Source of the DNA: a virus
Taxonomy: Duplodnaviria > Heunggongvirae > Uroviricota > Caudoviricetes
Length of the DNA: 16,979 bases
Direction: 5' to 3' (one strand)
IMG/VR virus record: IMGVR_UViG_2713896771_000020
Coordinates: 1 to 16,979 of that record
This document shows, piece after piece, positions 1-15,590 of this stretch (within the stretch, counting starts at the first letter, position 1; every line of letters starts with the position of its first letter). The position numbers were made by a program, and so were the translations under genes. The notes below the pieces were generated by a model. That model was not told where the DNA came from and did not search any database. It was given only the letters and a program-made list of their open reading frames with translations.

Positions 1-309
1 CTAGTACTCAGGAAGATTTTCTAAATTATCCTTAGATGTACCATTGGCTCTAGTTGTAATGTAATCAATGTTGTTAACACGGTCTTTAACCACTTTTTGA
101 CCCTTCTTCCACTTACCGTCATCACCTATGAAAATGGTGTAAAACGTATAACCACTATCGATCTTATTCACTACCCACTGCCGTGTTTCTGATACCCCTC
201 CCCCAACAGTATCCCCCTTATCAACATGCACATACACATGGGTAATGTGAGTGTGCTTGTCGTTATATCGGACTTTAGAAATAAGGTAATCAGCCCATTT
301 ATCAATCAT
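1..309 (-). CDS. Hypothetical cargo protein, possibly DUF3892-like; ATG at 307-309 preferred, alternative TTG start at 361-363
   Basis: Complete ORF with stop at 1-3. GGTGG Shine-Dalgarno-like sequence just upstream of the ATG at 309. Motifs HTHITHV ... SGYTFYT ... NLENLPEY recalled as resembling DUF3892, tentative. About 35% GC by eye, well below the neighbouring terL. Confidence 0.45.
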   Translation of the reverse strand: MIDKWADYLISKVRYNDKHTHITHVYVHVDKGDTVGGGVSETRQWVVNKIDSGYTFYTIFIGDDGKWKKGQKVVKDRVNNIDYITTRANGTSKDNLENLPEY

Positions 310-458
310 ATTCCACCATAAGTTTGAACAGGAAAAGTCCTGCAATACTCTTATAAACAACAAAGCAGCGGCTTCCTACCCCACGATGGTAATATAGTGA
401 TCTAGAGCAATTTATATTTCCGATAACATCGACACAACTCCACATTTACACTCTATTC

Positions 459-2120
459 TCAAATTCCATTAAATAAAGCCAACCGTTCTTTGTGGCTGTC
501 GCTCATATCGAATGCAAATTCCTCATGCTCTGCCTGGAATGTGCCAAACGCCATCAGCGCCGCAACGCTCGGGTCTATCTTGTTGGATGATTTTTTCTTG
601 TTCGGCTTGATATTGGCGTTTGCGTCACTCTGCATCACAACATTACTCATTGACCAGGCCAGCACCGGATCACCACTATGCACAATCACCTTCCGGTTAA
701 CAAAAACCTCGAACGATTTCGCCGCCGGACTGAAACGAAGGTATGTTTGCGGGAACGGCTCCACCTCAAATCCTGCCCCCTGTAGCTGCGTCCTCAGGTG
801 TGTGGCGTTCCATGTATCGAAGCCCACCAGCCTGATATTGAAATTCTCTGCATCCGCCATGATGTCATCACGGATACGGTCATAATCAATGCAGTCACCC
901 GGTGTTGTGCGTATCCAGCCCGCCTTTACCCACTGGCGATAGATGGCGCGGTTTTTATTGGCGGGGTTCTGTAGCTGAAATTCCGGCAGATAGTGACGGG
1001 AAACCAGCATAATCTTTTTACCGACCGGAAAGGCATAGCACACGCTGGAAATATCGCTGGTTGATGATAAGTCCAGCCCCGCGTAGCACTCCTGCCCGTA
1101 TAAATCCGCCTCCGCGAACGTTCCGGCGCACTCCGCCCATGCACCGTTACCCATCCACGGCGTAGCCCCCTGACACCAGATATTGAATCGCTTGGTGAGC
1201 ATTTCCACCCACTGCGACGGAATACCCCGCGCTTTCTGGATGGTTGATGCCAGTTTTTCACGATCGACGGAAACATCGATATTGGGATTCGCCTTTATCC
1301 ACATCGCCGGATCGTCAACCTCGCTTTCATCATCCAGCTCGTAAATCAGCACGAACATGGATTCGTTCACCTCTTCACCATCCAGTATCTGGCAGCAATA
1401 GTCGTAGTGTTGTTTACAGGCTGAAACAACGTTGCTCCCCGATGTGGTGATGGCAAATAACAGCCCCTCCGGACGCGCCCCCATTCCCAGCTCAAGCGCG
1501 GAATAAACCCCGTTGTCAGGATGCAGGTGATATTCATCCACAATGGCAAGACTCGGGTTTGTACCTTCAATGGTTGCCGCTTTTGCTGCCAGTGGCTTTA
1601 ACAGGCTGTTGGTTTTCGGGTGTATCACCTTGTGTGCCTGAATATTTACCCGCTTTCGCAACGGTCGGGATAAAAGGCACATCTGACGCGCATCATCAAA
1701 CACGATCCGCGCCTGATCACGACTCACGGCGGCGGTGTAAATATCCTGCTGCCCGTTTTCCATAACCAGAAACCAGTTAGCCAGGATAGCGGCGACCGTG
1801 GATTTGGCATTTTTTCGCGGCACTTCAATGAATGCGCTGGTGTATTTGCGCCGTCCGGTGGCCTTAACCTTAAAGCCCAGGATGCACGCAAAGGCGAACT
1901 GCTGCCACGGCTCCAGCTCAATGGGGCTACCGCGCATTGCGCCTTTTACGTGCGGACACACCCTGGAAAAGGCAATAAACCGCTCCACGACCTCCGGATC
2001 GAACGTGTAAAGGGGGTTTTCAAGGTCAGAAAAATACCGTTTAACGGCCTGTTTCAGTCGTTTACAGGCCGTAATTTTGCCGTTTTTTACGCCTTCTGCG
2101 TACTCATGCCAGGCGGTCAA
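459..2120 (-). CDS. terL: Terminase large subunit
   Basis: 553-aa ORF with an ATPase P-loop region (EVPRKNAKST) and overall terminase-like length and layout. TTG start at 2118-2120 preceded by GAGGA, overlapping the terS stop by 17 nt. Confidence 0.85.
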   Translation of the reverse strand: MTAWHEYAEGVKNGKITACKRLKQAVKRYFSDLENPLYTFDPEVVERFIAFSRVCPHVKGAMRGSPIELEPWQQFAFACILGFKVKATGRRKYTSAFIEVPRKNAKSTVAAILANWFLVMENGQQDIYTAAVSRDQARIVFDDARQMCLLSRPLRKRVNIQAHKVIHPKTNSLLKPLAAKAATIEGTNPSLAIVDEYHLHPDNGVYSALELGMGARPEGLLFAITTSGSNVVSACKQHYDYCCQILDGEEVNESMFVLIYELDDESEVDDPAMWIKANPNIDVSVDREKLASTIQKARGIPSQWVEMLTKRFNIWCQGATPWMGNGAWAECAGTFAEADLYGQECYAGLDLSSTSDISSVCYAFPVGKKIMLVSRHYLPEFQLQNPANKNRAIYRQWVKAGWIRTTPGDCIDYDRIRDDIMADAENFNIRLVGFDTWNATHLRTQLQGAGFEVEPFPQTYLRFSPAAKSFEVFVNRKVIVHSGDPVLAWSMSNVVMQSDANANIKPNKKKSSNKIDPSVAALMAFGTFQAEHEEFAFDMSDSHKERLALFNGI

Positions 2121-2460
2121 GCTCGTCCTCTTCCTCTGTTTCCGGTGGATTTCTGCGGCGACTTACCGGGTCAAAACCCAGCAAAGAAGCCATTTTGATC
2201 ATTATTCTTTCAGCGTCAGCCTTTGCGCTCAGGGCGGGGTTTCTGCTCTCGCTGCCCTGACTGTTAACAATGCTGAACCCGCGCGTGGCAAGGTCTTCGA
2301 CGGCTTTGCGGTATATGGAGTAGTTAACGCAATACAGCTCCAGATTGCTCCAGTCGGCGGGGGTAAGGTCTTCCCGTCCGGAAAGCTGGCGCGATTTTTC
2401 CTTCCACTGCCTGACCGCGATTTCATCCAGGTAAGCGGGGGCTTTTGGTGGTCTTGCCAT
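2104..2460 (-). CDS. terS: Terminase small subunit (P27-like family)
   Basis: Start at ATG 2458-2460 (MARPPKAPAYLDE...). Size and motifs (LELYCVNYSIYRKA ... NPAL ... FGFDPVSRRR) typical of P27-type small terminases. Sits immediately upstream of and overlapping terL. Confidence 0.8.
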   Translation of the reverse strand: MARPPKAPAYLDEIAVRQWKEKSRQLSGREDLTPADWSNLELYCVNYSIYRKAVEDLATRGFSIVNSQGSESRNPALSAKADAERIMIKMASLLGFDPVSRRRNPPETEEEDELDRLA

Positions 2461-2582
2461 GTTCTTTTTTCGCCCAATTATTTTCAAAAAAATTCCCGTG
2501 CACAAAAATTTGAGGAGGCGTTCGGTGCCCGGCGGGGTCGGGTTTGTCCTGAAAACGCCCCCCACCCCGCCATACAGCCTCA

Positions 2583-2765
2583 TCAGCGATTGCGGAAACA
2601 TTCCATAACCTCGCGGTCACGGTCGGTTAATCGCTTCGCTGTGATGCGTTCTGCGCGTCCTGACGCTTTATCTTTATGCCCTGTTTCCTGTGTCTTCCAT
2701 GCGTCACGCTGCCTTATAAGTCCACGGATAAGGCGGTTTTGTTCCCGCTCATTCATCAGCGTCAT
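2583..2765 (-). CDS. Questionable small basic ORF (60 aa) in the HNH-terS spacer
   Basis: ATG at 2763-2765 and in-frame ORF, but no convincing Shine-Dalgarno and it overlaps the HNH 3' end. It may be non-coding and part of a cos or regulatory region. Confidence 0.2.
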   Translation of the reverse strand: MTLMNEREQNRLIRGLIRQRDAWKTQETGHKDKASGRAERITAKRLTDRDREVMECFRNR

Positions 2766-3189
2766 ACATCCAGTTATTGCGGTTAGCGGCCCGTTCTTCA
2801 TCTTCACGAAATCCACCTGCGGCACGCTTGCTTTTTGTTGCCGGATCAAGCCATTTCGTTTTCTGGTTATGACACGCCTGACACAATGGCTGATGGTTCC
2901 ATTCGGGCCAGAAGAGAACATCATCGCCGCCATCGATGGGGATAATGTGATCCACCACCACGGCGGGCGTATATATCCCCTTCTCAAGGCATCGCACGCA
3001 TAACGGGTTTTTACTCAGATACATGGCGCGGTATTTGTCCCACTGTCTGGAGTACCCACGCGCGCGGCGGTGTCCTCGTCTGGCATCCTCTGCACGCCAT
3101 GCCGCCCGCCTGTGCTCCTCACACTTACCGGACTTAACGCGCCTGTTACAGCCTGGTTCTGTACATCGTCTTAATGGTTGCCACGGCAT
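2749..3189 (-). CDS. HNH endonuclease (terminase-associated)
   Basis: Cys pairs and HNH core: CNRRVKSGKC ... CVRC ... VDHIIP ... WNHQPLCQACHNQKT. Located directly upstream of terS, as in HK97-like cos packaging modules. Confidence 0.9.
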   Translation of the reverse strand: MPWQPLRRCTEPGCNRRVKSGKCEEHRRAAWRAEDARRGHRRARGYSRQWDKYRAMYLSKNPLCVRCLEKGIYTPAVVVDHIIPIDGGDDVLFWPEWNHQPLCQACHNQKTKWLDPATKSKRAAGGFREDEERAANRNNWMYDADE

Positions 3190-3482
3190 CAGTACACCCC
3201 CACATCACGGTAAGCCGTCCAGAGTGCGCCTATCGTCATGGGTACGCGCGTTTTTGCGTTATCCGCGACAATCTGGCGATTTTCATACAGGTGAGCGATA
3301 AACATCATGCAGCCAATCTTTATGGCTGGCGTGAACTCCAGCCCGTCATCAAAGCGCCTGCCTATGTGTATCTGGCACGCCTCAAGCGATGCGGCAATGT
3401 ATCCGCTGATTAACTGGTCTTCATCGTCGCCATCGATGCGGCAATGGAGTTTCACTTCTTCCAGGGTGATAAGTTCTGTCAT
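3189..3482 (-). CDS. Head-tail connector protein (gp6-like)
   Basis: 97-aa protein MTELITLEEVKLHCRIDGDDEDQLI..., matching the characteristic N-terminus of gp6-type connectors. ATGA start/stop overlap with the upstream gene. Confidence 0.7.
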   Translation of the reverse strand: MTELITLEEVKLHCRIDGDDEDQLISGYIAASLEACQIHIGRRFDDGLEFTPAIKIGCMMFIAHLYENRQIVADNAKTRVPMTIGALWTAYRDVGVY

Positions 3483-3817
3483 TTTTCCGCGCCCTCACGA
3501 CAAAGAATTTCAAGGCGTGTCCTGGCGGCATCTGGCAGCGGTTGCCCGATGATATTCAGTACACGCCCCGCCAGCGGCCCCGTATTGACCTTTATCCGAC
3601 TGGTGGCGTTGATGTCCTTCCGGTAGCGTATCCATATCCTTACAGTTCCAGTCGCCAGCTCTGCACCTGATGAAATGGCCTCCTTGCTGCTGATCATGTT
3701 CACGCTTGCCCAGAGTGTGTGACCGTCCAGCCACGTTTCGAGTATTTCACCCGTCATGGCTCTGGTCTGTTTCAGGGTCTGAATCGTTACCCTGTCACGC
3801 AGTCGCCCTATGTTCAT
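3479..3817 (-). CDS. Head closure / head-tail adaptor protein
   Basis: MNIGRLRDRVTIQ ... TLWASV ... IRYRKDI ... pattern of head-closure proteins. ATG at 3815-3817 overlaps the portal stop (ATGA coupling). An upstream in-frame ATG at 3857-3859 is less likely. Confidence 0.65.
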   Translation of the reverse strand: MNIGRLRDRVTIQTLKQTRAMTGEILETWLDGHTLWASVNMISSKEAISSGAELATGTVRIWIRYRKDINATSRIKVNTGPLAGRVLNIIGQPLPDAARTRLEILCREGAEK

Positions 3818-5025
3818 TCCGGTTTTTCTCCCTCGCTGATTTTTACTTCCTGTTTCCATGCCTGGCTGAACTCATCACCACCATCACGCGGTGACAGTCC
3901 TTCACGTTCGCGGGCTTCGTTCGGACACATAACGCCGGATTTGATGCCGCGCTCATAGGTGGCAAAGCGTTCGCCAGGTGTGGCCCGTAACAGGTCCGCG
4001 CTGTCAAACTCCACCTGATACCGGATACCAGGTACAGGCGAGGCCACCAGCAGGGCGTTTTTTATCTGCTGCTCAAAGTTCGCCAGCCACGGGCGCATCG
4101 TCATGGTGAGAAATGCGCGGCTTGCCTCGCTGAAATTGCTGTAGGTGCTGTTGCTGTATTCCTGCAAAAAAATCGGCGAGACGTTGAACATTCTGGCGAT
4201 GTCTTCAATGGTGAAGCGACGGGAGGCCAGCCATTCAGCATCCTGATTACTCATGCCCAGCTGCTGATAGCTCATACCCCCTTCAAGGATGGGCGTTTTT
4301 CCGGCGTTTCTGGCCCCTTTGTAGCGTTCCAGTGCGGCTAATGCCTGTTTGCCCTTCACGCCGTCCAGCCATTCGCCTGACGTGATAACCCCTGCCGCCA
4401 TCATGCCATCACGCATCACGCTCGCGCCGTGGCGTTGTTGGGCCAGCCCAAGCCCCAGCGATTCGCGGCAGATGGTTACAGGTGAGCGCCCCATAAAACC
4501 GTCATCCGTGGAGTAACGAAGGTGGAGAACCTCCCACGGTAAATAGTTGCGGGTGTTTCCGGTGTAAGCGTCAGTGATGCAGTAGCGCCAGTTGTGTTCT
4601 CCTGTCTGCTCCATGTTCACCGACTGCGGCGGGTAAGGATGCAAAGCCGCCGGAAAACCATCACGCCCCCACTGAATCACCGCGTAAGCATTACCGTTTA
4701 ACAGGCAGTGGCGGATCATCATTCGCTTAAACTGGTAGGGAGTCTGCCACGCGTTCGGGCGCTCGTTGAGGATGTGATCGACCGGATGAGAATCAAGCCA
4801 CTCGCGGGCCTCCTTCCCCTTCTCATTGCGTACCAGGTACAGGTAACACGGCATGGTAGCCACCGCCTCAGAGATGACCGTCACGGCGTTCATGACGGCG
4901 GGCAGTGATTCCGCTGTCCCCGATGATACGTACTCACCCGCCCCCGTGTTCGATGTGCCAGCCAGCGCCATAAACTCATCAAGCGTCATGCTGCGCTGCT
5001 CTTTTTTTCTTCTGAAAGGCCACAT
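3814..5025 (-). CDS. Portal protein (HK97 family)
   Basis: 403-aa ORF with size and composition of HK97-type portals. GGGGG Shine-Dalgarno 6 nt upstream of ATG 5023-5025. Flanked by protease and adaptor genes. Confidence 0.85.
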   Translation of the reverse strand: MWPFRRKKEQRSMTLDEFMALAGTSNTGAGEYVSSGTAESLPAVMNAVTVISEAVATMPCYLYLVRNEKGKEAREWLDSHPVDHILNERPNAWQTPYQFKRMMIRHCLLNGNAYAVIQWGRDGFPAALHPYPPQSVNMEQTGEHNWRYCITDAYTGNTRNYLPWEVLHLRYSTDDGFMGRSPVTICRESLGLGLAQQRHGASVMRDGMMAAGVITSGEWLDGVKGKQALAALERYKGARNAGKTPILEGGMSYQQLGMSNQDAEWLASRRFTIEDIARMFNVSPIFLQEYSNSTYSNFSEASRAFLTMTMRPWLANFEQQIKNALLVASPVPGIRYQVEFDSADLLRATPGERFATYERGIKSGVMCPNEAREREGLSPRDGGDEFSQAWKQEVKISEGEKPE

Positions 5026-5026
5026 A

Positions 5027-5599
5027 TCACACCCCCGCTAAATCCGCCCACCAGCGGCGATTATCCGCACGCGGCATTTTTTCGGGGTGCTGCTCGTACA
5101 GGGAGCGGCGGGCCAGCTCCACGCCGGAATCAGGGTAAGCCGGTACGGATGTGACGGTAATTTCGTACAGTTCCGCAACCAGCACGGTGCGCACGCATGG
5201 ATCTGTTGTGGTATCCCATACATCCTTACGGGAACGAAAGCCAAAGCTCATGCCGGATATATCACCACGCTTAACCAGTTCGATAACGTCGCGCCCTGTA
5301 CTGGTATCCGGTGGGGTCAGTTCAAAGCGTAACCCTGTTTCATCCTCTTCCAGTTTCAGCGTGCCGGAACGGGTGCGCCCCAGTAACATACTGTGGTCAT
5401 GCTCATACAGGCCGCGAACGTCATTACCCGCCGCAAGCCATTCAGTAAACGCCCCCCGCTGGAATTTTTCGTAAAACTCACCCCATAACAGTTCTGAAAG
5501 CTTATCCCAGCGAACAACGTAGCCTGTAAGCGTGTTGCTGCCGCTGGTGGTGATTTCCGATGACCGGATTTCCATACTCTTCATAATTTTTTCACCCAT
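5027..5599 (-). CDS. Prohead maturation protease (HK97 family)
   Basis: 190-aa ORF; motif LYEHDHSMLLGRTRSGTL typical of HK97-type prohead proteases. Start among ATGs at 5597, 5582 or 5573 is uncertain. Confidence 0.8.
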   Translation of the reverse strand: MGEKIMKSMEIRSSEITTSGSNTLTGYVVRWDKLSELLWGEFYEKFQRGAFTEWLAAGNDVRGLYEHDHSMLLGRTRSGTLKLEEDETGLRFELTPPDTSTGRDVIELVKRGDISGMSFGFRSRKDVWDTTTDPCVRTVLVAELYEITVTSVPAYPDSGVELARRSLYEQHPEKMPRADNRRWWADLAGV

Positions 5600-5608
5600 A
5601 AAACACTA

Positions 5609-5628
5609 AAGGGGCTTTTAAGCCCCTT
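5609..5628 (-). terminator. Hairpin immediately after the major capsid gene (partial terminator or attenuator)
   Basis: 8-bp stem AAGGGGCT/AGCCCCTT with a 4-nt loop, followed on the minus strand by GUGUUUUAUGG. Lies between the capsid stop (5639) and the protease start. Confidence 0.5.
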
Positions 5629-5638
5629 CTGTATGCTG

Positions 5639-6796
5639 TTAATCGTCGTCCTGTGGCAGTTCCAGAATCTTGATCGCGTTCGAATCCACCACGCCACCGC
5701 CTAAATATTTCTGCGTGAAAATTTTGATGAAGCCCGGCTCTGTGAGGTTGTCCGGTCTGGTGCGAACACCTGTTTCGTGATCAACAATGTAGTAACCGCG
5801 TTTGAAGTCACCCAGGGCAATAACGTTATCAGGCATAAACTCCAGATATTCGACCGGAAGGCCCAGCAACGTATCAGGATCACCCGCCTGTAAACGGTCG
5901 CGCCAGATATAATCACCGTTCGCGTTCTTCACCTTCTGGAGTTTTGCCGCCGTCGTGGAGTTAACCACCCAGACCGCGTTTTTGCGGTATTTTTTACGTA
6001 ATGCAAATTTCAGGTCGATCAGCGGGTCCGCAGATGTCCACGCCAGAGATTCGGAAGGTTTAATTACCTGTAACGTACCAAAATCACGCTCTTTGTCGTT
6101 CTTCTCTGCACGGGGTACGGATAAAAAGCCTTTTGCTTTTTTGTCACCATCGCCCACAACCAGATCGCTTTCTTCGGTTTCCGTGAAGGTGTCGCCAATC
6201 TCACCCGTCAGCCATGAAAGGATGTCCACATCGGAAAAATCCACGATTTCCTGTGTGGTGCGCGGGTACGCATAGACCGGATACAGCTTAATGCTCACCT
6301 CGTTAATCTGCGGGGTGCTGGTCTGTTCGCGTGCCTTACCCTCTTCACCGTGGTTAACGGTCGCACCGCCAGCGGAAACAAGCTGCTTAAACTCGTTGCT
6401 GCTGATTTTCTTCACGGTACAGATGCGGCGCATGGTGGATTCATCCGCCAGCATTCGCATGATTTCGGTGTTCAGTTCAGGGATAACGGTATAACCACCA
6501 TCAGCGGGAACGCCTGTACTTAATGCGCGGGTTTCACCTGTCAGAATGTAGTTGCGGAGTTCTGCGGGGTCAGTGGTCTGACTGCTTTTACCTGGCTTGC
6601 TGCGCTCTTCGTCTGCAATGGCTTCAAGGCGGGAAATGTCTTTATCGAGGGATTCAGCTTTAGCGCGTAATTCGTCAAATGTTGCGCCCTCAGCATCGTT
6701 AAGACTGCGGTTTTCTTTTTCCGCGTTCTCCAGCATGTCGCGCATCTGATTTTTAATGGCGGTTTTCTGCTGGCGTAATTCGATTATTCTCGGCAT
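5639..6796 (-). CDS. Major capsid protein, HK97 fold, with N-terminal scaffold-like (delta) domain
   Basis: 385-aa ORF. N-terminal ~100 aa is charged and coiled-coil-like (ELRQQKTAIKNQMRDMLENAEKENRSL...), followed by a capsid-like body. Adjacent prohead protease. Confidence 0.88.
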   Translation of the reverse strand: MPRIIELRQQKTAIKNQMRDMLENAEKENRSLNDAEGATFDELRAKAESLDKDISRLEAIADEERSKPGKSSQTTDPAELRNYILTGETRALSTGVPADGGYTVIPELNTEIMRMLADESTMRRICTVKKISSNEFKQLVSAGGATVNHGEEGKAREQTSTPQINEVSIKLYPVYAYPRTTQEIVDFSDVDILSWLTGEIGDTFTETEESDLVVGDGDKKAKGFLSVPRAEKNDKERDFGTLQVIKPSESLAWTSADPLIDLKFALRKKYRKNAVWVVNSTTAAKLQKVKNANGDYIWRDRLQAGDPDTLLGLPVEYLEFMPDNVIALGDFKRGYYIVDHETGVRTRPDNLTEPGFIKIFTQKYLGGGVVDSNAIKILELPQDDD

Positions 6797-7050
6797 AAAA
6801 AAAGTCCTGGGGTTAAGTAAGGAACTCCAGGACGCGGCAAAAACTCAACCGTTTTTCATAAGGAAATCAGCAATCGCACCGATCGTTTTCCCGCCTGGTA
6901 ATGAATATTGGCGAGAACATTAACAGGCGGAAAAGTGGCCCCAGCGTCCTGGCACCACGGGCGAGAATAATCATGATTCAGTTCGGGTAAAATATGCCGA
7001 TCCTGTCAGTGAACAACGTGGAACAACCGCGAACAAATAATTTACAAAAA
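6797..7050 (-). promoter_or_regulatory. Leader and promoter region of the capsid/packaging operon
   Basis: 254-bp non-coding gap. Three 10-bp-phased TTGTTC repeats (7011-7036) lie upstream of a candidate -10 TATTTT (~6989-6994). Hairpin 6804-6833 followed by T7 abuts the capsid ATG. Confidence 0.5.
7011..7036 (-). repeat. Three direct repeats GAACAA (TTGTTC on the minus strand) at exact 10-bp spacing
   Basis: Plus strand reads GAACAAcgtgGAACAAccgcGAACAA at 7011-7016, 7021-7026 and 7031-7036. Confidence 0.9.
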
Positions 7051-7055
7051 ATGAC

Positions 7056-7083
7056 AAAAAGCCGGATTGCTCCGGCTGTATGC
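7056..7083 (-). terminator. Rho-independent terminator
   Basis: Stem GCCGGA/TCCGGC (7061-7066 and 7071-7076) with loop TTGC, followed on the minus strand by TTTTTGTCATTTTTT. Near-identical copy at 7408-7434. Confidence 0.75.
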
Positions 7084-7087
7084 GTGC

Positions 7088-7312
7088 TCAGTCCCTGATC
7101 CCTTTCAGAAATTCTATCAATGCATCTATCTGTTCAGGATTTACCGCCAGCATTTCACCGGACAGAGCACATCTCACAAAACCATGCTGATCCTTTTCAA
7201 TCAGTGCGCCCGTCTCCAGGAATGCGCGGTAATCATTGATGCTCATCGTCTCCATGTTGTCAGCATGGTATTTATCACGCTGTTTTAATATCTCATCAAA
7301 TTTCATCGGCAT
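7088..7312 (-). CDS. Hypothetical 74-aa protein in a moron-like cassette
   Basis: ATG at 7310-7312 with AGAGGA Shine-Dalgarno 8 nt upstream (MPMKFDEILKQRDKYH...). Bracketed by two near-identical intrinsic terminators. Confidence 0.55.
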   Translation of the reverse strand: MPMKFDEILKQRDKYHADNMETMSINDYRAFLETGALIEKDQHGFVRCALSGEMLAVNPEQIDALIEFLKGIRD

Positions 7313-7407
7313 TGTTTTTTCCTCTGTTGTGTCTGTTTGTTTCAGATAGTAACTATGCCTGACCGTGACGAAAACCCGGTAATGCGCCATACCGTTTCAA
7401 CTGGTGC

Positions 7408-7434
7408 AAAAAAAGCCGGATTTCTCCGGCTGTG
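7408..7434 (-). terminator. Rho-independent terminator (second copy of the same element)
   Basis: Stem GCCGGA/TCCGGC (7415-7420 and 7425-7430) with loop TTTC, followed on the minus strand by T7. Immediately after the stop of the 7438-7710 gene. Confidence 0.8.
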
Positions 7435-7437
7435 TGA

Positions 7438-7710
7438 TTAGCTGTCCTGGTAATTTCGCCATATTTCATCACCAGCACCATCCATACCCATTTCGGCATA
7501 AGTGCGATCGACCGCCTTTTTCAGGTCTCCGTAATTATCCGGCGGCTCCGGTGGCCTCTGTGCCTTCCTGGAACATTCCAGCCGTCGCATCGTAACCTGA
7601 TGCCGTTCCTTGTCTGTCTCCACCAGCAGCATGACTTCACCCCATCGCGCCGACGCCCTCCGGTAAAAGCCTTTTGCCTCGAGTTCCTCCGCTATGCGGT
7701 CATGTACCAT
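7438..7710 (-). CDS. Hypothetical 90-aa protein
   Basis: ATG at 7708-7710 with GAGGGGG Shine-Dalgarno, just downstream of the ssb stop. The longer ORF-track start overlaps ssb out of frame and is rejected. Confidence 0.5.
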   Translation of the reverse strand: MVHDRIAEELEAKGFYRRASARWGEVMLLVETDKERHQVTMRRLECSRKAQRPPEPPDNYGDLKKAVDRTYAEMGMDGAGDEIWRNYQDS

Positions 7711-7720
7711 CGTCACCCCC

Positions 7721-8131
7721 TCAGAACGGAATATCATCACCGTAGGGGTCATCGTCTCCCGCTGGTGGCTGATTACCCTGTGTGCCTGTGGTTTTGCGTC
7801 TGTTCCCGCCAGGACGTGCCGCACGGGCACTGATTACGCTGTCTGCAATAACCTGATACCCCTGCCGTGTTTCCCCGTTCTGTCCGGTCCACTGGCTTAC
7901 CTGCATCGTGCCGGATACGCTGGCAACATCGCCTTTTTGATGTTTAGCCAGGAAATCGGCCTGTTTGCCAAATGCGATAACCGATAACCATAACGTCGCC
8001 TGTCCGTCATGTGCCTGGCTGCATGGCAACGATACCGCCATACGCGCCAGAGTCATCGGTGTGCCCTTGCTGCTCTGTTTTACCAGCGGGTCGTCCACCA
8101 GGCGCCCGTAAGCTGCAATTTGTGCTGTCAT
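7721..8131 (-). CDS. ssb: Single-stranded DNA-binding protein with acidic C-terminal tip
   Basis: 136-aa ORF with SSB-like core (TLWLSVIAFGKQADFLAKHQKGDVASVSGTMQVSQW), Gly-rich linker and C-terminal DDDPYGDDIPF, the conserved SSB tail. GAGGTGG Shine-Dalgarno. Confidence 0.8.
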   Translation of the reverse strand: MTAQIAAYGRLVDDPLVKQSSKGTPMTLARMAVSLPCSQAHDGQATLWLSVIAFGKQADFLAKHQKGDVASVSGTMQVSQWTGQNGETRQGYQVIADSVISARAARPGGNRRKTTGTQGNQPPAGDDDPYGDDIPF

Positions 8132-8140
8132 ATTGCCACC

Positions 8141-8446
8141 TCAGTGAAGCGATCCGGCGTTGTTCTTTTTCATCTCTTCCATCATTTTTTCAGTGAGCAT
8201 TACGCACTGAAAACCCATGTTTTTGATGTCTACGGGTTTCATGCCTTTGTCAGTGGATATCACAGGCAGAATATCCTGATACACATCGCGGTCAGGGTAA
8301 CTAAGCACACAAAGCGCCCATGATGCCACGGGTGAGGATCCTTCGTCTGTTTCAACCCACCAGCCTGGTGTAGCTGCGCTTATTTGCAGAATCGTGATCA
8401 GTCCGTTGTGCTTGTAAAGTTTTTCACCAAATTTTGGTTCGCTCAT
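8141..8446 (-). CDS. Hypothetical 101-aa protein
   Basis: ATG 8444-8446 with GGAGAGGTGG Shine-Dalgarno. ATGA overlap with the upstream gene. No recognisable motif. Confidence 0.5.
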   Translation of the reverse strand: MSEPKFGEKLYKHNGLITILQISAATPGWWVETDEGSSPVASWALCVLSYPDRDVYQDILPVISTDKGMKPVDIKNMGFQCVMLTEKMMEEMKKNNAGSLH

Positions 8447-8694
8447 GATTCCACCTCTCCGGTTTTAACGTTGATGGTTGTTACCTGTTCCGCTTCGGCA
8501 ATCTCCCGTTCTGTCAGCGTGGCAAAGTTTGCCGCCGCCGTGGTCATGAATGCGCTTATCAGGTCGGGATGTTCCTTCGCGTATCCTTCCCGCGTGTGGC
8601 GGTCTATCGTTCTGATTGCCACCTTTAAGGTGTGCTCAGTCATGTCTAACGCTTTATATTTTGGCTCTGTTCTGTCTCTGCGTTTTTGGGTCAT
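8443..8694 (-). CDS. Hypothetical 83-aa protein (start uncertain: 8694, 8724 or 8643)
   Basis: In-frame ORF translationally coupled to the downstream gene. Its upstream region overlaps the iteron array. Confidence 0.4.
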   Translation of the reverse strand: MTQKRRDRTEPKYKALDMTEHTLKVAIRTIDRHTREGYAKEHPDLISAFMTTAAANFATLTEREIAEAEQVTTINVKTGEVES

Positions 8695-8703
8695 TTCTCG
8701 CAA

Positions 8704-8897
8704 CCTCTCACTTTTTCGCCTCACTTTTTCAAGCGTCTCACTTCGTCGCAGCTGGGATTTTCGGTTTTTCTATGTGTGTGTTTCATAAGTATTTTTTTAC
8801 CCCTCACTTTTGAGGATGTATACAGGTCGAAAAGTGAGGGAGAGCAGGCTAATTTTGGCCCTCTTTCTATCCACCTCGCTTTTGCTCCTCACTTTTA
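8704..8897. repeat. Iteron array, putative replication origin of the island
   Basis: CTCACTTTT-type repeats at 8707, 8720, 8737 (degenerate), 8803, 8874 (degenerate) and 8888, plus one inverted copy AAAAGTGAG at 8830-8838. Adjacent AT-rich tract 8783-8800. Lies immediately 3' of the replicase gene. Confidence 0.65.
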
Positions 8898-10295
8898 TAG
8901 CGGCGCTACATCATCCCCATCGATACGAATAACCCCATCTTTTTCCAGCTTGTACAGCCAGCGCCGGAAGTTTTTCATTTCATACCCCAGCTTTTTCATG
9001 TCATCACGTAACAGCGGGATCGTGCACTTGTCGCCGTTCTGTGTGCGTGAACGGATGCACCCCCATAAAGCGGTATGGTTTTCCGTCTTGTTCCCGGCCT
9101 CCTCGATGCGCTCCAGTTCAACAGGAGGGCGCGGATCATCCACCACCACCAGCGACGTGATTAATTCACCGTCAGCGTCGGTAAAAAGCTCCACCACGCG
9201 TAAGTCATATGCGGCTTCTTTGAGTTCCTCCGCGTCCTTCATTTTGGTGCATGAGATAACCAGCGCTTCGCTTCCTGCGTCCTCCCTGCGTATCCGGTAT
9301 TCAGCATCCAGCGAAGCACGAAATGCACTGGAACCGCGCGCGCCTTTCGTCTCATCCTTGCCGGAATGGTGAACCACCAGCACCGTGGCCCCTGTGCGTC
9401 GTTTCAGTTCGTCACAACCACGGATAAACGCCCCCATATCACGGGAATCATTTTCATCATTCCCACCAAAGCAACGCGCCAGCGTATCCAGAATAATCAT
9501 GCGAACAGGTTTACCCGTTTCCCGCTCCACCTGACGGGCAGCGATAACCATTTCATCAACATCAAGCGGGGCAGCCGGAAAGATGGGGCGGTTTACCAGA
9601 TACAGATTTTTCACCTGCTCATCGTGCACAACCTCCCAGGCTTTTACACGACGCGGAACACCTATACCGCCTTCACCAACCACATAGAGAACCGCACCAT
9701 GCGCAACCCTGCGGCCTCCCCACTGGCGACCAGTGGCAACATGGCACGCCCACGATCCGGCAAGGAATGATTTATAGGACCCGCTAGCCCCGTATATGCT
9801 GCATAGCGATACCGCCGGAATAATCCCCTTAACCACGTAATCCAGTTGCGTGTCGTATCCGGTAGATCCAACGCTCATCGGTAGCGTGGTTTTTCGCTGG
9901 TGGTTTTTTTCTTCCGCCGGCTCTTTCCCACGCACCCGTTCCAGGTATTCGCGCCAGTTCTCCCGCATATGGCTGTGCATCCCTTCGGGGTAATAATTCG
10001 CATCAGTTACACCCGCCGCCGCCAGCTTGTGCGCAATGGCATTAATATTTGATGGCCTGATGTGGCCTGCCTTGTACAGCCGGACACAATAGCGCCCCTC
10101 GTCGATGATTCTCAGGTCTGCCAGTTCATCCAGTTGATCATCAGCCAGCACAACGGGAGGCACATTATCGCCAGCCAGTCGCCCGTCCTGTTCCTGCCAC
10201 TGTTTCGCATGTGCCCAGGCATCACTACCCGCAAAAATAATGACTTCGGTCATCTTGTCGTAAGGCTGTTTTTTTAAGTTCGGTGCGCTTTTCAT
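8895..10295 (-). CDS. Primase/replicase-type replication initiator with RecA-like (RepA/AAA_25-type) ATPase domain
   Basis: 466-aa ORF. P-loop-like YGASGSYKS, Walker B MIILDTL, and VVHHSGKD motif typical of RepA-like helicase loaders. ATGA coupling to the upstream gene. Confidence 0.75.
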   Translation of the reverse strand: MKSAPNLKKQPYDKMTEVIIFAGSDAWAHAKQWQEQDGRLAGDNVPPVVLADDQLDELADLRIIDEGRYCVRLYKAGHIRPSNINAIAHKLAAAGVTDANYYPEGMHSHMRENWREYLERVRGKEPAEEKNHQRKTTLPMSVGSTGYDTQLDYVVKGIIPAVSLCSIYGASGSYKSFLAGSWACHVATGRQWGGRRVAHGAVLYVVGEGGIGVPRRVKAWEVVHDEQVKNLYLVNRPIFPAAPLDVDEMVIAARQVERETGKPVRMIILDTLARCFGGNDENDSRDMGAFIRGCDELKRRTGATVLVVHHSGKDETKGARGSSAFRASLDAEYRIRREDAGSEALVISCTKMKDAEELKEAAYDLRVVELFTDADGELITSLVVVDDPRPPVELERIEEAGNKTENHTALWGCIRSRTQNGDKCTIPLLRDDMKKLGYEMKNFRRWLYKLEKDGVIRIDGDDVAPL

Positions 10296-10591
10296 TTCTT
10301 GCCCCTGAATACGTTAAGCATCTTTTTTATTTCCTGAATATTGGCGCGTGCTTTCTCCCTGCTGGTTGGTTTACTGCGGGGCGCTGCCTGTACCAGAGAA
10401 AAATCACGCCGGAACTGATAAACAGGCATCACGCAGTCATATTCGTAGCCTTCACGGCGGTAGGTAATGCGTCGCTCTTCTACACCTTTAATCGTTACGG
10501 TGCCGCCGTACTGGTCGCGGTAAATATCGCCGCGCGTAAATTTAGGGTGAGTGTTGCCACTGGCAGTTAAGCCAGAATATTTAAGTTTCAT
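10292..10591 (-). CDS. Hypothetical 99-aa protein
   Basis: ATG 10589-10591; intact ORF in the same operon directly upstream of the replicase. Confidence 0.5.
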   Translation of the reverse strand: MKLKYSGLTASGNTHPKFTRGDIYRDQYGGTVTIKGVEERRITYRREGYEYDCVMPVYQFRRDFSLVQAAPRSKPTSREKARANIQEIKKMLNVFRGKK

Positions 10592-10596
10592 TATTT

Positions 10597-10830
10597 TTAT
10601 TCTCCGGTGTGCTGTTCTTTATATCTGTCGTGCAATATATCTATTTCTTGCAGTTCCATTATTACAGGATCAAGAAGCGTTATTAATGCCGTGGCAATTC
10701 TTGATTTTTGTTTGTCGCGTTCATTGTCGCCAAGTGTTTCAAGCCATATGCGCAATATTTCCAGCATGTTTTCACTGTGAGAAAGTGCAAGAAATGCGCG
10801 GTCTATTGTTTGGTGGTAAATATCACGCAT
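10597..10830 (-). CDS. Hypothetical 77-aa protein, AT-rich gene
   Basis: ATG 10828-10830 with GAGGA Shine-Dalgarno. Local GC visibly lower than flanking genes. Confidence 0.5.
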   Translation of the reverse strand: MRDIYHQTIDRAFLALSHSENMLEILRIWLETLGDNERDKQKSRIATALITLLDPVIMELQEIDILHDRYKEQHTGE

Positions 10831-11272
10831 GGCTTACATCCTCAGGAAATTTTCTTCTATAACGCGCCTCTGCCACATATTCCGCATAATCGGCGGCGAT
10901 ATTCAGTACATCAAGCCCCGTTGATTTATATTCTCTCGTGGAAAGTAAGAAAAAAGCCGCTCTAATAAGTTCTGGCATTGACGAAAGCGCATCAGCCGCA
11001 TCATCAGGAACGCCGGAAAATTCCTGTTTCAGGGAATTAAAACGATCATCACGCATAACCCCCCCCCCATTTTCACAATCAGCAACAAGAATATTTTTAG
11101 CGTCATTCAGCGACCGCGTTGCGGTGTATCGGATACATTCCAGGGCGAATAGTGTGTATTCTTCCCTTTCTTCCTTTTGTGCAAGCTCTGCTGTGCATTC
11201 AATATCAATAAGCGCGTGCATCAGCGTAGTGAGTGCGGCGGCGGCTGCGTCCGGTGTGGTTTTATTGCACAT
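10823..11272 (-). CDS. Hypothetical 149-aa protein containing a G10 homopolymer tract
   Basis: ATG 11270-11272 with GGAGGGG Shine-Dalgarno. The coding strand carries GGGGGGGGGG (plus-strand C10 at 11059-11068) encoding ENGGGV. Confidence 0.5.
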   Translation of the reverse strand: MCNKTTPDAAAAALTTLMHALIDIECTAELAQKEEREEYTLFALECIRYTATRSLNDAKNILVADCENGGGVMRDDRFNSLKQEFSGVPDDAADALSSMPELIRAAFFLLSTREYKSTGLDVLNIAADYAEYVAEARYRRKFPEDVSHA

Positions 11273-11492
11273 GTACCCCTCCGCATTTTTTTTCGTTAGA
11301 AATAAGCGTTCTTCTTTCCTGTTCATCGATCAGGAATACGCAGACCTCACCGCTAAGGCGTTTAAGTAAGCCGATGATTGCCCCTGATTCGCTGTCGGTC
11401 ATCATGCCTGGGTAATCCTCTGCCAGTGCGCAAATAACTTCGATTTGGTGGGCGCGTTCTACTGCCTGTTGTAGTGTGATTTCCTGGCTCAT
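11262..11492 (-). CDS. Hypothetical 76-aa acidic protein
   Basis: ATG 11490-11492 overlapping the stop of the upstream gene (ATGA). No recognisable motif. Confidence 0.5.
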   Translation of the reverse strand: MSQEITLQQAVERAHQIEVICALAEDYPGMMTDSESGAIIGLLKRLSGEVCVFLIDEQERRTLISNEKKCGGVHVQ

Positions 11493-11689
11493 AAGCCTAC
11501 CCCCTGACGAATACGGGCAGCGAATACCATCACGCAGCCAGCCGGGGATTGCAGGCGTGCTTCCTGTTCGCTGGTGGCCTCAATGGTAATCACGCGCGGT
11601 TGTGCAGTGCTCAGGGCGATAAAACGCCAAATGTATTTATTCAGGTTGTGCGAGTCCCGCCCTTGCGGGTGTGTGGTATGATTTCTCAT
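11489..11689 (-). CDS. Hypothetical 66-aa protein, first gene of the leftward early operon
   Basis: ATG 11687-11689 with GAGGT Shine-Dalgarno (MRNHTTHPQGRDSHNLNKYIWRF...). The ORF-track 381-aa extension upstream is non-coding promoter sequence. Confidence 0.5.
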   Translation of the reverse strand: MRNHTTHPQGRDSHNLNKYIWRFIALSTAQPRVITIEATSEQEARLQSPAGCVMVFAARIRQGVGL

Positions 11690-11885
11690 AGCTACCTCGA
11701 TACTCTCGTTATCGTTGGTGGTTAGAAGCCCCGTTACTGCTCCTACAGTGCGGGGTTTCGTCGTTTCTGCACCTTGCATTAACAAGGTGTAAGTAACTTT
11801 ATTTATAGGTGGCTTACATGTCAATGCTTTTATGTAAGACTTTTTATGTGTATATTGTCTTACACTTTCATTGAGAGGATTACAG
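11690..11885. promoter_or_regulatory. Divergent promoter/operator switch region
   Basis: Minus-strand promoter: perfect -35 TTGACA (11819-11824), 17-nt spacer, -10 TAAAGT (11796-11801). Plus-strand candidate -10 TATATT (11851-11856). Inverted repeats CTTACAT/ATGTAAG (11814-11820 and 11833-11839), TGTAAGAC/GTCTTACA (11834-11841 and 11858-11865), CACCTTG-N6-CAAGGTG (11770-11789). Confidence 0.6.
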
Positions 11886-12191
11886 ATGGCTACAGGTTCA
11901 AAAAACGCAAAATCACAATCACTGACAGCTCGGATCCCGCATGATGTTATTGAAGGCATGGAATCCGTAAAACTGGACGGTGAAAGCAACGCCGGATTCA
12001 TAGTAACCGCCATGCGCGGTGAAATCGCCCGCCGCCAGGCAGAAGGAAGCGGAGAAAACCTCCTGATTTCTTCGCTCAATGCACTGGCGCAGGTGGAAAA
12101 ACTCGGAATCAAAGCCGCCGAGGAGATCGGGCAGCTCGTCACTGTCGCACGTGAAGAACTCCAGCGCCGCAAGACTAAAGAACCAGAGTAA
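11886..12191 (+). CDS. Small ribbon-helix-helix-like DNA-binding protein, candidate island repressor
   Basis: ATG 11886 with GAGAGGA Shine-Dalgarno. N-terminal beta-strand/helix pattern SLTARIPHDVIEGMESVKLDGESNAGFIVTAMRGEIARRQ resembles Arc/CopG-type folds. Divergent from the early operon. Confidence 0.5.
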   Translation: MATGSKNAKSQSLTARIPHDVIEGMESVKLDGESNAGFIVTAMRGEIARRQAEGSGENLLISSLNALAQVEKLGIKAAEEIGQLVTVAREELQRRKTKEPE

Positions 12192-12248
12192 TCACCATCA
12201 GCGCCGTGGTGTAAGGTATTACGGCGCATTGCTATGCAGGACAACACA

Positions 12249-12422
12249 ATGACCGATAAAGAATTGACCAAAACATTATCACCGGCACGGAAAAGACGGC
12301 GCAGAAAGATAGAGCATGAATCAGAAAGATTCGCGCCATGTGCTTTTGCCCTTGAGCAATTCCTTAAAGAGTACAGGGAAAAGCGCTCATTGCAGGTATG
12401 GCAACGAACTGAACCAGACTGA
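12249..12422 (+). CDS. Hypothetical 57-aa basic protein
   Basis: ATG 12249 with AGGA Shine-Dalgarno 7 nt upstream (MTDKELTKTLSPARKRRRRK...). Second gene of the short plus-strand operon. Confidence 0.4.
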   Translation: MTDKELTKTLSPARKRRRRKIEHESERFAPCAFALEQFLKEYREKRSLQVWQRTEPD

Positions 12423-12517
12423 TTGCATTGCCCACCAGCCTGATAGCGGCTATCATCCCCGTGCTTATGTTTGGGATCACATACACAAACGGCGCAGCGG
12501 GTTATCTGTTCAGAAAG

Positions 12518-12545
12518 GCGGCTCCATTTCGGGGCCGCTTTTTTT
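12518..12545 (+). terminator. Rho-independent terminator of the plus-strand regulator operon
   Basis: 8-bp stem GCGGCTCC/GGGGCCGC with one G-U pair and loop ATTTC, followed by T7. A second AU-rich hairpin CTGAAAAAC/GTTTTTCAG lies at 12550-12579. Confidence 0.7.
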
Positions 12546-12691
12546 ATACCTGAAAAACCCCAATTTTGTTGTTTTTCAGTTTCACCAGGGCGAACGAATC
12601 CCCGCCCACGTTCTGGCGTATATTCAATCTTCATGGTTATGGCTCTGTGTTCAGATGATTGATGTGTGGCGGCTGCGTGCCGCCAGCGTGA

Positions 12692-12880
12692 TTAATGAAC
12701 TGCCTTGCAGCTATCCTTCCAGGCCAGAACCTCGGATAAAGACCAGCCAACGGAACGACCGCCAAGTTTACGACGTGATGGGAATTGTCCGGCCTTTTCC
12801 AGGCGGTAGCGGCATGAGCGGCTAAGGCCTGTTAGCTTTTCGCATTCTTTTTCACGTATAAACCGATCAGTGCTTAACAC
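12692..12880 (-). CDS. alpA: AlpA-family (excisionase-like) transcriptional regulator
   Basis: 62-aa protein; core LTGLSRSCRYRLEKAGQFPSRRKLGGRSVGWSLSEVLAWKDS matches the AlpA/Xis-like winged-helix signature. GTG start with GGGGG Shine-Dalgarno. Immediately downstream of int in the same orientation. Confidence 0.85.
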   Translation of the reverse strand: MLSTDRFIREKECEKLTGLSRSCRYRLEKAGQFPSRRKLGGRSVGWSLSEVLAWKDSCKAVH

Positions 12881-13163
12881 TATTGCCCCCTTTCGTTTCT
12901 TAAAGAGTTATTTCGTGTTCTATTGCGTTGGGATGTGTCTGATTGTGTCAGGATGATTCAGAGTTGGCAAATGTTGAGGCCGTATGGTTTACAGAAAGAG
13001 GAATAATCAGGATAAAATCATTTAAATTCATGTTAATACAAAGGCATAAAATATTGTTTCATGCCTTTTTTCTCGCTATTTAAAGAGTGATTCGCTAGTG
13101 TATAAAAAACCAGTAACACATTAAAAATCAGCTACTTATAAATCTGTACACTTTTTCGCCTCT

Positions 13164-13208
13164 TGTTCGTAGTTGTTCCGCATTGTTGCTCATTGTTGCA
13201 CGTTGTAT
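13164..13208 (+). repeat. Four to five direct repeats TTGTT(C/G) at 10-bp spacing
   Basis: TTGTTC at 13164 and 13174, TTGTTG at 13184 and 13194, degenerate TTGTAT at 13203. Same motif and phasing as the arrays at 7011-7036 and 14539-14574. Confidence 0.85.
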
Positions 13209-13221
13209 CTGTTCGCATATC

Positions 13222-13237
13222 CAGTATGCGCATACTG
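13222..13237. promoter_or_regulatory. Perfect 16-bp palindrome CAGTATGCGCATACTG
   Basis: Exact dyad symmetry directly adjacent to the repeat array, in the int-alpA intergenic region. No flanking U-run, so a protein site is more likely than a terminator. Confidence 0.5.
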
Positions 13238-13254
13238 AAAAAATACGAAAAAAA

Positions 13255-14484
13255 TTATTTTCTTCTGGCTACTGGTAGCGTGGTTACGTTTTCATGTGTT
13301 CCCGCCAGTATCCCTAACCGCTCCATCCACATATCCAGCACATTGCGTTTAGCATCCAGATAACGGGAATGATTATAAACTCGCTGCATTCCTGGCATCT
13401 GGTGGCCTGTAAGCTGCTCCACGACATGCGGATCAACGCCTAAATCGTTCAGCATGGTTGTAAAGGTGCGCCGGATGTCATGCAGTGACCAGTGAGGATG
13501 ATTAAGCCTCCTGTGCGCTAATCTTCCATACTGCGATACGCTGGCCTCCTGTTTCACTTCCCCCAGCAATAAGCCCGTGTGCCTGTTCTGCTCCACCAGC
13601 TGCGTGACGAACGGCAGGATCGCTTCCGGTATGGGCCGGAATATTGCGACCTTCGTTTTGCTGTGCTCCTTCGGAACGGTCCATAGCATTTCCGTAAAAT
13701 CCCACTCCCCGATCTCCGATAGCCTCAGTTCTACCGTCCTGGCTCCGAAGACAATCAGGAGGCGGATTAACGCGACGTAGTAAGGGGAAAATATTTTTTT
13801 GTCCAGTGCCTGCAATAATTCGCCAAGTTCTTTGTTACTTAAGACACGTTCGCTTATATCCGGTTTTTTCCCAACGTCCGCCACGTTCAGATCGTCCAGA
13901 ACGTTGCTGATTGCATAGCGCCGCCTACGGCAGAACTTAAGCGCCTGTTTGCACGCCTGTAGCACGAATCCGGCAGTAACAGGCGTTCGCTTTGCCACCT
14001 GGTCAAAACAGGCCAGCCAGTGCCGTAGCTCGCATTTATCCAGCGGCATAGCACCAATCTGCTGTATTACGTGATTATTAAGTCGCCTTTTCAGGGCGAT
14101 ATAATCCACGCGGTTTTCCTTTACGTAATACTCAAGCCAGTAGGTGAGCGCATCGCCAACCGTTACGGGCTTTAACGCTTCCTGTACGGTGTAATTCATC
14201 TCATGACGTGGATTTTTCCCCTCAGCCAGCCATGTGCGACACTGTGCGGCTTTTTCCCTGGCTGCTTTCAGGCTCAGATCAGGATAACTTCCCAGCTTAA
14301 TGCGTTCGGGTCGTGTCTCCCTTCCCGTTCCGGCCCTGTATGTGAAATACCAGGTCAATTTCCCTGATGTTAAATATTTCACGCTCAGGTTTCCGCCATC
14401 ACTATAAAACGTGTTTTTCTCCGCTGGCTTACCATGAAGTTTCCTTAGCAAGGTATCGCTCAGTTTGTTCATTGCTCTGCTCAC
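13255..14484 (-). CDS. int: Tyrosine site-specific integrase (P4-like family)
   Basis: 409-aa ORF; C-terminal catalytic region with HDIRRTF ... LTGHQ ... RVYNHSRY (R, H-x-x-R, Y). GTG start 14482-14484 with AGAGGGGG Shine-Dalgarno; alternative ATG at 14472. Adjacent to the insertion junction. Confidence 0.9.
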   Translation of the reverse strand: MSRAMNKLSDTLLRKLHGKPAEKNTFYSDGGNLSVKYLTSGKLTWYFTYRAGTGRETRPERIKLGSYPDLSLKAAREKAAQCRTWLAEGKNPRHEMNYTVQEALKPVTVGDALTYWLEYYVKENRVDYIALKRRLNNHVIQQIGAMPLDKCELRHWLACFDQVAKRTPVTAGFVLQACKQALKFCRRRRYAISNVLDDLNVADVGKKPDISERVLSNKELGELLQALDKKIFSPYYVALIRLLIVFGARTVELRLSEIGEWDFTEMLWTVPKEHSKTKVAIFRPIPEAILPFVTQLVEQNRHTGLLLGEVKQEASVSQYGRLAHRRLNHPHWSLHDIRRTFTTMLNDLGVDPHVVEQLTGHQMPGMQRVYNHSRYLDAKRNVLDMWMERLGILAGTHENVTTLPVARRK

Positions 14485-14507
14485 GTTTTACCCCCTCTTT
14501 ACGAAAA

Positions 14508-14531
14508 AGTGACTACACCAGTGACTACACC
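14508..14531. repeat. Perfect tandem 12-bp direct repeat AGTGACTACACC x2 in the int promoter region
   Basis: Copies at 14508-14519 and 14520-14531, about 25 bp upstream of the int start codon. Confidence 0.9.
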
Positions 14532-14538
14532 GATCGTT

Positions 14539-14574: not shown

Positions 14575-14660
14575 GGAAAATCACAAATCTGTTGATAATC
14601 AAAAACATAATGCACAGCCTGAAACATTATGAAACAGCAAAAAACACTAAATGATAAAAT

Positions 14661-15584: not shown

Positions 15585-15590
15585 TCAGGG

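Follow-up and report, generated by a model that had tools for sequence, protein, structure and literature searches.

The stretch of DNA analysed here (hereafter the window; 16,979 nt, one strand, positions 1 to 16,979 of the IMG/VR record IMGVR_UViG_2713896771_000020, Caudoviricetes) ends in a small gene for a DUF3892 protein which, in all likelihood, is an autonomous accessory cassette of the "moron" type carried at the edge of a satellite. For the arrangement as a whole we favour, on balance, an explanation in which this cassette has replaced a 93-aa gene (p93) of sibling satellites, was gained together with terS and terL, and may serve in phage-host conflict. The find is an instance of a known pattern, accessory satellite cargo, encoding an annotated domain of unknown function; the protein sequence is already annotated, and what had not been described is its place as the end cassette of capsid-forming PICIs (cf-PICIs).

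The gene is read from the minus strand, with its TAG stop codon at 3-1 forming the very edge of the window and its ATG at 309-307 (Table 1). We take this ATG as the true start because the N-termini of homologues (M-x-x-KWADY in 41 of 41 aligned sequences), the Shine-Dalgarno-like sequence (kept in position as GGTGA, GGAGGA or GGATA among nine contexts) and the RefSeq annotation all point to it, the last being a 309-nt CDS on 100%-identical DNA with the product name "DUF3892 domain-containing protein" (WP_024226535.1). A TTG at 363, which opens the mechanical ORF 1-363 of 120 aa, was ruled out as a start by the homologue N-termini, the GGTGG at 317-313 and RefSeq; a 47-aa ORF at 302-445 was likewise discarded as a gene since its ATG is absent in locus L002. 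The preliminary description of this DNA was right to place a protein of about 100 aa (102 aa) as the final gene downstream of terL, but the 95-nt spacer that it gave is in fact 149 nt of non-coding DNA, counted from the ATG at 309 to the terL stop at 459. Its claim that the gene is AT-richer than terL also holds, with a GC content of 0.392 (GC3 0.398) against 0.523 (GC3 0.606); the spacer has a GC content of 0.383, the island as a whole 0.51, and the remaining large island genes 0.51-0.57 each. Positions 1-458 lie 3.0 standard deviations below the rest of the window, and the 1.2% of equal-sized segments that are equally low in GC all fall within the intergenic region between a regulator and the integrase gene. 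That region (~12810-13300, from the HTH regulator to the integrase gene; GC ~0.36) is the sole AT-rich stretch of the window to equal the cassette. In all hosts examined the DUF3892 gene is AT-rich (GC 0.34-0.44).

Membership of the family, earlier a tentative suggestion to be checked by a Pfam HMM search, is supported by a match to PF13031 (DUF3892) of 39.2 bits, compared with a curated gathering score of 22.3 bits (E = 9.6e-10; residues 10-100 on profile positions 2-71 of 71), and by an end-to-end match to PHROG 32719 (E = 3e-54). Within the enterobacterial subfamily of PF13031, the 100% DNA identity over window positions 1-460 equates the protein with the RefSeq entry named above. Of the two motifs singled out at first, HTHITHV and NLENLPEY, both are present, but only the C-terminal one is a family signature ("DNLENLPE[YF]", with D94, N95, L96, N98, L99 and P100 invariant in 42 sequences) and HTHITHV is confined to close relatives; the other family signature in the window protein is the N-terminal KWADY-IS. 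NCBIfam gave no real match for the protein and a PDB sequence search returned nothing, and the sole match among the PADLOC-DB v2.0.0 defence models was a chance-level one to PtuA (E = 0.03, 32 residues). A literature search found no experimental report on the DUF3892 family.

Table 1. Features of the cassette and its surroundings in the window.
Feature	Position	Strand	Basis
DUF3892 CDS, stand-alone, 102 aa, 11.8 kDa, pI 7.9	1-309	minus	translation, Pfam, PHROG, RefSeq
Cassette leader and junction	310-491	minus	sibling cf-PICIs align only from 492
Shine-Dalgarno-like GGTGG, 3 nt 5' of the ATG	313-317	minus	sequence and conserved position
Conserved leader hairpin, GCAGGA-CUUU-UCCUGU (putative)	328-343	minus	RNAfold, alignment
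Promoter-like boxes TAGGAA (378-373) and TATAAG (355-350), 17-nt spacer	350-378	minus	conservation
terL (large terminase)	459-2120	minus	ORF and RefSeq names for homologous DNA
Recombination breakpoint, G-rich intergenic stretch upstream of terS	2470-2580		mismatch profile
Tandem GTGACTACACC repeats, integrase-side island end inside split tqsA	14509-14531	plus	pattern search; both ends of L003

The island is inserted in tqsA, adjoining pntB, and encodes, all on the minus strand and in this order, an integrase (13255-14484), regulators, a RepA-type helicase (8895-10295) that occupies the primase/replicase slot, an SSB, a major capsid protein (5639-6796), a prohead protease, a portal, head closure/connector proteins, an HNH protein, terS and terL; these names are supported by the RefSeq products of a 98.5%-identical sibling (L003). 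Proteobacterial cf-PICIs carry capsid and packaging genes of their own with the order hnh-terS-terL, the prototype being EcCIEDL933 (10.1101/2022.09.08.507074), and the window shows the corresponding gene content and order (integrase, regulators, replicase, capsid, protease, portal, connectors, hnh-terS-terL). By analogy with the sibling, no tail or lysis genes are present between the integrase gene (14484) and position 1. The earlier view of the host element as a satellite with the gene at its distal end is borne out, and by gene set and order we identify it as a capsid-forming PICI. Island ends of two att-site classes have tandem 11-12-nt repeats that include ACTACACC (GTGACTACACC twice and ATTAACTACACC twice); these lie at 14509-14531 in the window, at 4978-5004 in the sibling and at 15395-15421 in a clpS-site island (L001), and may be integrase binding sites. 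Some cf-PICIs are bordered not by a chromosomal att site but by phage head genes or a prophage terL that is truncated (L005 2728-3981; L019 5606-6997), a pattern that suggests insertion into or beside a resident prophage or phage-like replicon.

Comparison with other islands delimits what is foreign at the distal end. The terL lineage of the window is found in 537 of 5426 complete E. coli genomes; in most of these, homology ends at window position 480-492, and in 15 of the 537 it continues through the DUF3892 gene. Over 492-16979 the window matches the nearest islands of its own att site at 98.5% identity; before 492 it is unrelated to them, and positions 1 to ~491 have no counterpart in these islands, the last ~10 terL codons (459-491) being part of the swapped segment. 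Their slot holds p93, a phrog_1561 member without a Pfam match, which starts 13 nt after terL and has a GC content of 0.56; 1579 of the 5426 genomes (29%) carry it, and neither the window nor any DUF3892-type island examined does. In most cf-PICIs a post-terL p93 of 93-94 aa follows terL directly (for example L003 5673-5954 and L006 3691-3975). As siblings hold p93 in the same slot, the cassette is a replacement and not an addition to a free cargo region. The initial expectation of accessory cargo at this kind of position was therefore correct in that the gene is non-core (15/537), but not in treating the position as a free cargo slot, since it normally holds one conserved 93-aa gene. SatelliteFinder defines a cf-PICI as the stretch from the integrase to the farthest core component, and genes past terL are missing from cf-PICI catalogues because this boundary is the last core gene.

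Since the cassette sits precisely where sibling satellites have a conserved gene, it could substitute for that gene in function instead of being free cargo. The DUF3892 protein would then be a factor of the satellite life cycle standing in for p93, as a packaging, head-completion or helper-interference accessory encoded by the last gene of the capsid-packaging operon. Consistent with this, the gene fills the phrog_1561 slot exactly and no island examined carries both genes; no terminator was found between terL and the DUF3892 gene, which makes read-through from the packaging operon likely; and in the 14 cf-PICI contigs of IMG/VR with DUF3892 the gene sits at a fixed 153 nt after terL, at the contig end. 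We consider such a substitution quite improbable, however, as p93 and the DUF3892 protein share no similarity (p93 has no Pfam match and belongs to another PHROG) and their genes differ in GC content (0.56 and 0.39), the cassette has a conserved leader and a terminator of its own, and it persists where there is no capsid or terminase module, namely in hpt-site islands, in RM islands, in archaea and, in Pectobacterium, alone beside fis.

The accessory cassette reached this island as part of a larger segment. From position 1 to ~2500 the window has 0-3 mismatches per 100 nt to the clpS-site DUF3892 island versus 5-16 to the tqsA-site sibling, and from ~2500 on it has 0-2 mismatches per 100 nt to the tqsA-site sibling versus 7-41 to the clpS-site island. 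The left 2.5 kb (terS, terL and DUF3892) are accordingly ~99% identical to the clpS-site island and the remainder is ~99-100% identical to the tqsA-site island. On this mismatch profile the island is a recombinant of two cf-PICI lineages, and because the window switches lineage at ~2500, the DUF3892 gene came in with terS-terL. The breakpoint stretch upstream of terS is possibly the cos region.

The terminator and the end of the island lie beyond the window and are known from relatives. An intrinsic terminator is found 24-30 nt after the stop codon in L001, L007 and L013 and aligns between contexts; by analogy we expect a terminator AAAGCACCA-TAC-TGGTGCTTTTT beyond position 1, ~24 nt after the stop. 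In the clpS-site island the gene is followed on its 3' side by the terminator, a 155-bp degenerate copy of a fis-site att/terminator, a 123-bp element and an att repeat ~590 bp from the stop; in fis-site islands the att repeat lies ~95 bp from the DUF3892 stop. No annotated or plausible gene was found between the DUF3892 gene and the att repeat in the relatives examined, and Rfam returned nothing for the DNA 3' of the gene in the clpS-site island, where the ORFs up to the att site are all <=81 aa and unannotated and were judged spurious. The suggestion that more cargo may lie just left of position 1 runs counter to all the relatives examined, in each of which DUF3892 is the last gene and is followed by the terminator, non-coding DNA and att; further cargo directly left of position 1 is, by analogy, unlikely. 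The degenerate fis-site copy (L001 15846-16000), which now resides at clpS/cspD, is the fossil of a former integration site, carried along with the cassette. The 123-bp element, perhaps a site of recombination or protein binding, occurs with 94% identity in the non-coding ends of two otherwise different islands (L001 15698-15820 and L003 5262-5384) and holds a perfect palindrome, GAGTTGCAGATCTGCAACTC.

Alignment of the contexts indicates that the travelling unit consists of a shared leader of ~80-100 nt, the gene and the intrinsic terminator. Homology to the Klebsiella hpt-site cassette begins at ~385-400; between -80 and -1 the two leaders share 75% identity, whereas identity is 59% for third codon positions and 45% for the DNA between -150 and -81. 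Two promoter-like boxes (T-GGAA and TATAA) keep a spacing of 16-17 nt in nine contexts from E. coli, Morganella, Klebsiella, Pectobacterium, Pantoea and Cedecea, with a spacer of variable sequence. None of the four contexts scanned contains a consensus sigma-70 promoter, the -35 being weak and the -10 having no T at position 6. The promoter of its own that had been proposed for the gene is thus supported by the conserved upstream region and the non-canonical boxes but not by a consensus sigma-70 match, and because the boxes fail that scan we only infer it. RNAfold predicts the same hairpin in the same place in seven of the nine leaders, the two Klebsiella hpt-site leaders forming a longer alternative helix. 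Its arms change in paired fashion in Pectobacterium (GCAGAA/UUCUGC; the MAFFT alignment misplaces the 3' arm here) and in Pantoea (CAGC/GCUG), which over seven distinct sequences is suggestive of a covarying leader hairpin.

Portability of the cassette is evident from the range of elements that carry it. Its DNA occurs in 18 E. coli genomes, four times at the clpS/cspD site (99-100% identical), eleven times at fis/yhdJ (87.6%) and three times truncated near hpt, and the gene is also carried by cf-PICIs in Morganella (fis site) and in a Klebsiella phage-like replicon. Among the 2.9 million viral contigs of IMG/VR there are 22 DUF3892 loci, of which the cf-PICIs make up 14, and just one of 50,697 phage records, itself a 1.9-kb record, has a DUF3892 gene. 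The gene lies at the hpt-proximal end of Klebsiella islands that encode a D5-type primase and vary in their further genes (SEFIR-TIR, reverse transcriptase, DUF4238 or HATPase). In Pectobacterium the gene is solitary, between fis and an unrelated gene and without att repeats; in Pantoea it belongs to an integrative element and stands beside a TIR gene; and in a metagenomic genome it lies between type IIG and type I restriction systems. In the islands examined the DUF3892 gene is the nearest gene to the att site.

Several further loci were observed in the course of this comparison. The hpt-site islands of Klebsiella and relatives (L007-L012 and L102) may also have DUF4365 in their variable slot and all end with DUF3892 beside hpt, and some D5-type-primase hpt islands contain tail-fibre or tail-fibre-assembly-like genes (Gp53-like_C, Caudo_TAP). 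E. coli Ec1120 has an integrase-BrxR-BREX type 1 island between gcd and hpt (L101 865-22948), at the end of which are IS debris and a truncated DUF3892 copy of 81 aa. A contig labelled as a Clostridium sp. MAG (L022) has a leader almost identical to the Pantoea-type enterobacterial leader, which suggests either bin contamination or very recent transfer.

Beyond these mobile elements the family is large. A profile built from 42 homologues retrieved at least 1500 clusters at 50% identity (1507, of which 811 at E <= 1e-10), almost all of them stand-alone proteins of ~100 aa, and ~140 of the 150 best representatives are 89-115 aa long. The 80 genome loci collected come from Proteobacteria, Firmicutes, Actinobacteria, Chloroflexi, Bacteroidota, CPR bacteria and several archaeal phyla; their proteins share 36-82% identity with the query. 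No conserved partner gene was found across these 80 bacterial and archaeal genomes, the largest neighbour cluster comprising 7 loci; the nearest neighbours are mixed, with a minority of SMODS cyclases, CapH/CapP, IetA, DUF2188, IS110 transposases, and integrases or resolvases.

Given its place nearest the att site, the gene might be read as a neutral passenger, a flank remnant acquired when islands excised imprecisely or turned over at the fis or hpt att sites, and retained for no other reason than its place beside the att core. The degenerate fis-site att/terminator copy directly 3' of the gene in the clpS-site island, the solitary copy beside fis in Pectobacterium and the truncated copy in three E. 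coli genomes all fit such an origin. Against it, the DUF3892 protein is, to judge from dN/dS values of 0.02-0.29 among enterobacterial copies with synonymous sites saturated between genera, under strong purifying selection; the leader is conserved above the synonymous rate; and more than 1500 clusters at 50% identity across bacteria and archaea, whose members are still 36-59% identical to the window protein, are hard to reconcile with a passenger. Capture may explain how the gene arrived in the island but not a lack of function in the gene, and we regard a neutral passenger as very improbable.

An AlphaFold2 model of the 102-aa protein (pLDDT 93.5) agrees with the published description of the DUF3892 domain in predicting a three-strand meander plus helix (residues 8-51). 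Relative to the 71-position PF13031 model the window protein has ~20 extra residues, with a four-strand sheet modelled at 56-85. A fold resembling a dsRBD or a ribosome hibernation factor has been proposed for DUF3892 (10.1101/2025.01.14.632903); comparison of the model with solved dsRBD or HPF structures found no structural similarity, and no relative of the DUF3892 protein with a solved structure was found. The possibility that the C-terminal LPEY/F mimics the free C-terminal tail of SSB was dropped because the tail is modelled with a pLDDT of ~91-94 and strand bridges, seemingly packed on the domain.

A role in phage-host conflict is plausible for the accessory cassette on the sequence evidence, and fits the island contexts, a TIR fusion, published predictions and the rarity of the gene in phages. 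The fusion, AbiJ_NTD5-TIR-DUF3892, is rare (3 of 41 relatives of that protein). DUF3892 has been linked by prediction to defence and to CapH/CapP-regulated operons (10.1101/2022.04.27.489752; 10.1101/2025.01.14.632903). As a specific assignment, a conflict or defence function of the cassette is a possibility that we put forward tentatively, with less than even confidence. A more detailed version, in which a single-gene conflict factor of novel fold acts on a target shared by bacteria and archaea (the ribosome, RNA or a nucleotide signal), thereby blocks or modulates phage infection, travels as a plug-in cassette and uses the leader hairpin as an autoregulatory operator to which it binds, seems to us somewhat unlikely.

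The same ties to immune proteins would also suit a counter-defence decoy or sponge, that is, a small stand-alone copy of a sensor domain that would titrate the triggers or signals of those TIR, CBASS or Min-Wnt immune proteins whose sensor is DUF3892 and so aid the satellite or its helper in establishing in new hosts. Proteins such as Tad1, Tad2 and Acb2 are known sponges, and the stand-alone DUF3892 form resembles them in being small and having neither an effector domain nor a partner gene. The same domain of ~100 residues is the C-terminal module of the AbiJ_NTD5-TIR proteins and has been reported fused to Min-Wnt effectors (10.1101/2025.01.14.632903). Anti-defence genes concentrate in bona fide phage genomes, however, from which DUF3892 is nearly absent, and the gene occurs in chromosomal contexts resembling defence islands; a decoy is therefore unlikely in our judgement.

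Taken as a moron-type cassette, the unit would comprise the conserved leader of ~80-100 nt with its boxes and 5' hairpin, the 102-aa DUF3892 gene and a terminator just past the window edge. It has taken the slot of p93 at the integrase-distal end of the cf-PICI, and the island gained it, with terS-terL, through homologous recombination with another cf-PICI lineage. The cassette would stand outside the capsid and packaging machinery of the satellite; unrelated integrative islands maintain it at their ends, and it also occurs singly. It would probably be expressed from its own promoter when the island is integrated, and by packaging-operon read-through after induction. The protein may work without a partner, and its target may be one that bacteria and archaea share, such as nucleic acid, the ribosome or a nucleotide-derived signal, and its most likely service would be in conflict with phages or between mobile elements, as defence, exclusion or interference.

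Two side results are of interest in their own right, namely an exchangeable end module of cf-PICIs that includes the widespread p93, and DUF3892 as a tractable candidate for testing. The post-terL position is a real exchange point at which p93 can be swapped for a foreign cassette, and whole end modules pass between cf-PICI lineages by recombination, in elements described so far as minimal and with catalogues ending at terL. The DUF3892 family is large and has repeated circumstantial ties to immune loci, and a 102-aa protein with its own leader makes an easy experimental construct.

Phage morons are independent promoter-gene-terminator units placed between conserved genes, as described by Hendrix and colleagues. 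The cassette shares with them presence or absence at a fixed junction (480-492), a deviant GC content, a terminator of its own and a conserved upstream region, and differs in that its host is a satellite, that a resident gene was replaced instead of there being a pure insertion, and that the promoter here consists of conserved boxes only. Judged by its sibling, the island would resemble other cf-PICIs in lacking tail and lysis genes and, with its left end beyond the window, would at ~14-15 kb be of about the expected size (~10-15 kb), but it has DUF3892 instead of the 93-aa gene as end module and is a recombinant of two lineages. A survey of E. cloacae reported no defence system in its cf-PICI (one genotype, two isolates). 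The cassette is unlike satellite defence cargo in that it matches no known defence model and encodes a single 102-aa protein without an enzymatic domain. With the cargo hotspots of PICIs and P4-like satellites (PMC10085698; PMC13612085) it has in common that a variable gene sits at the edge of the element, outside the core modules.
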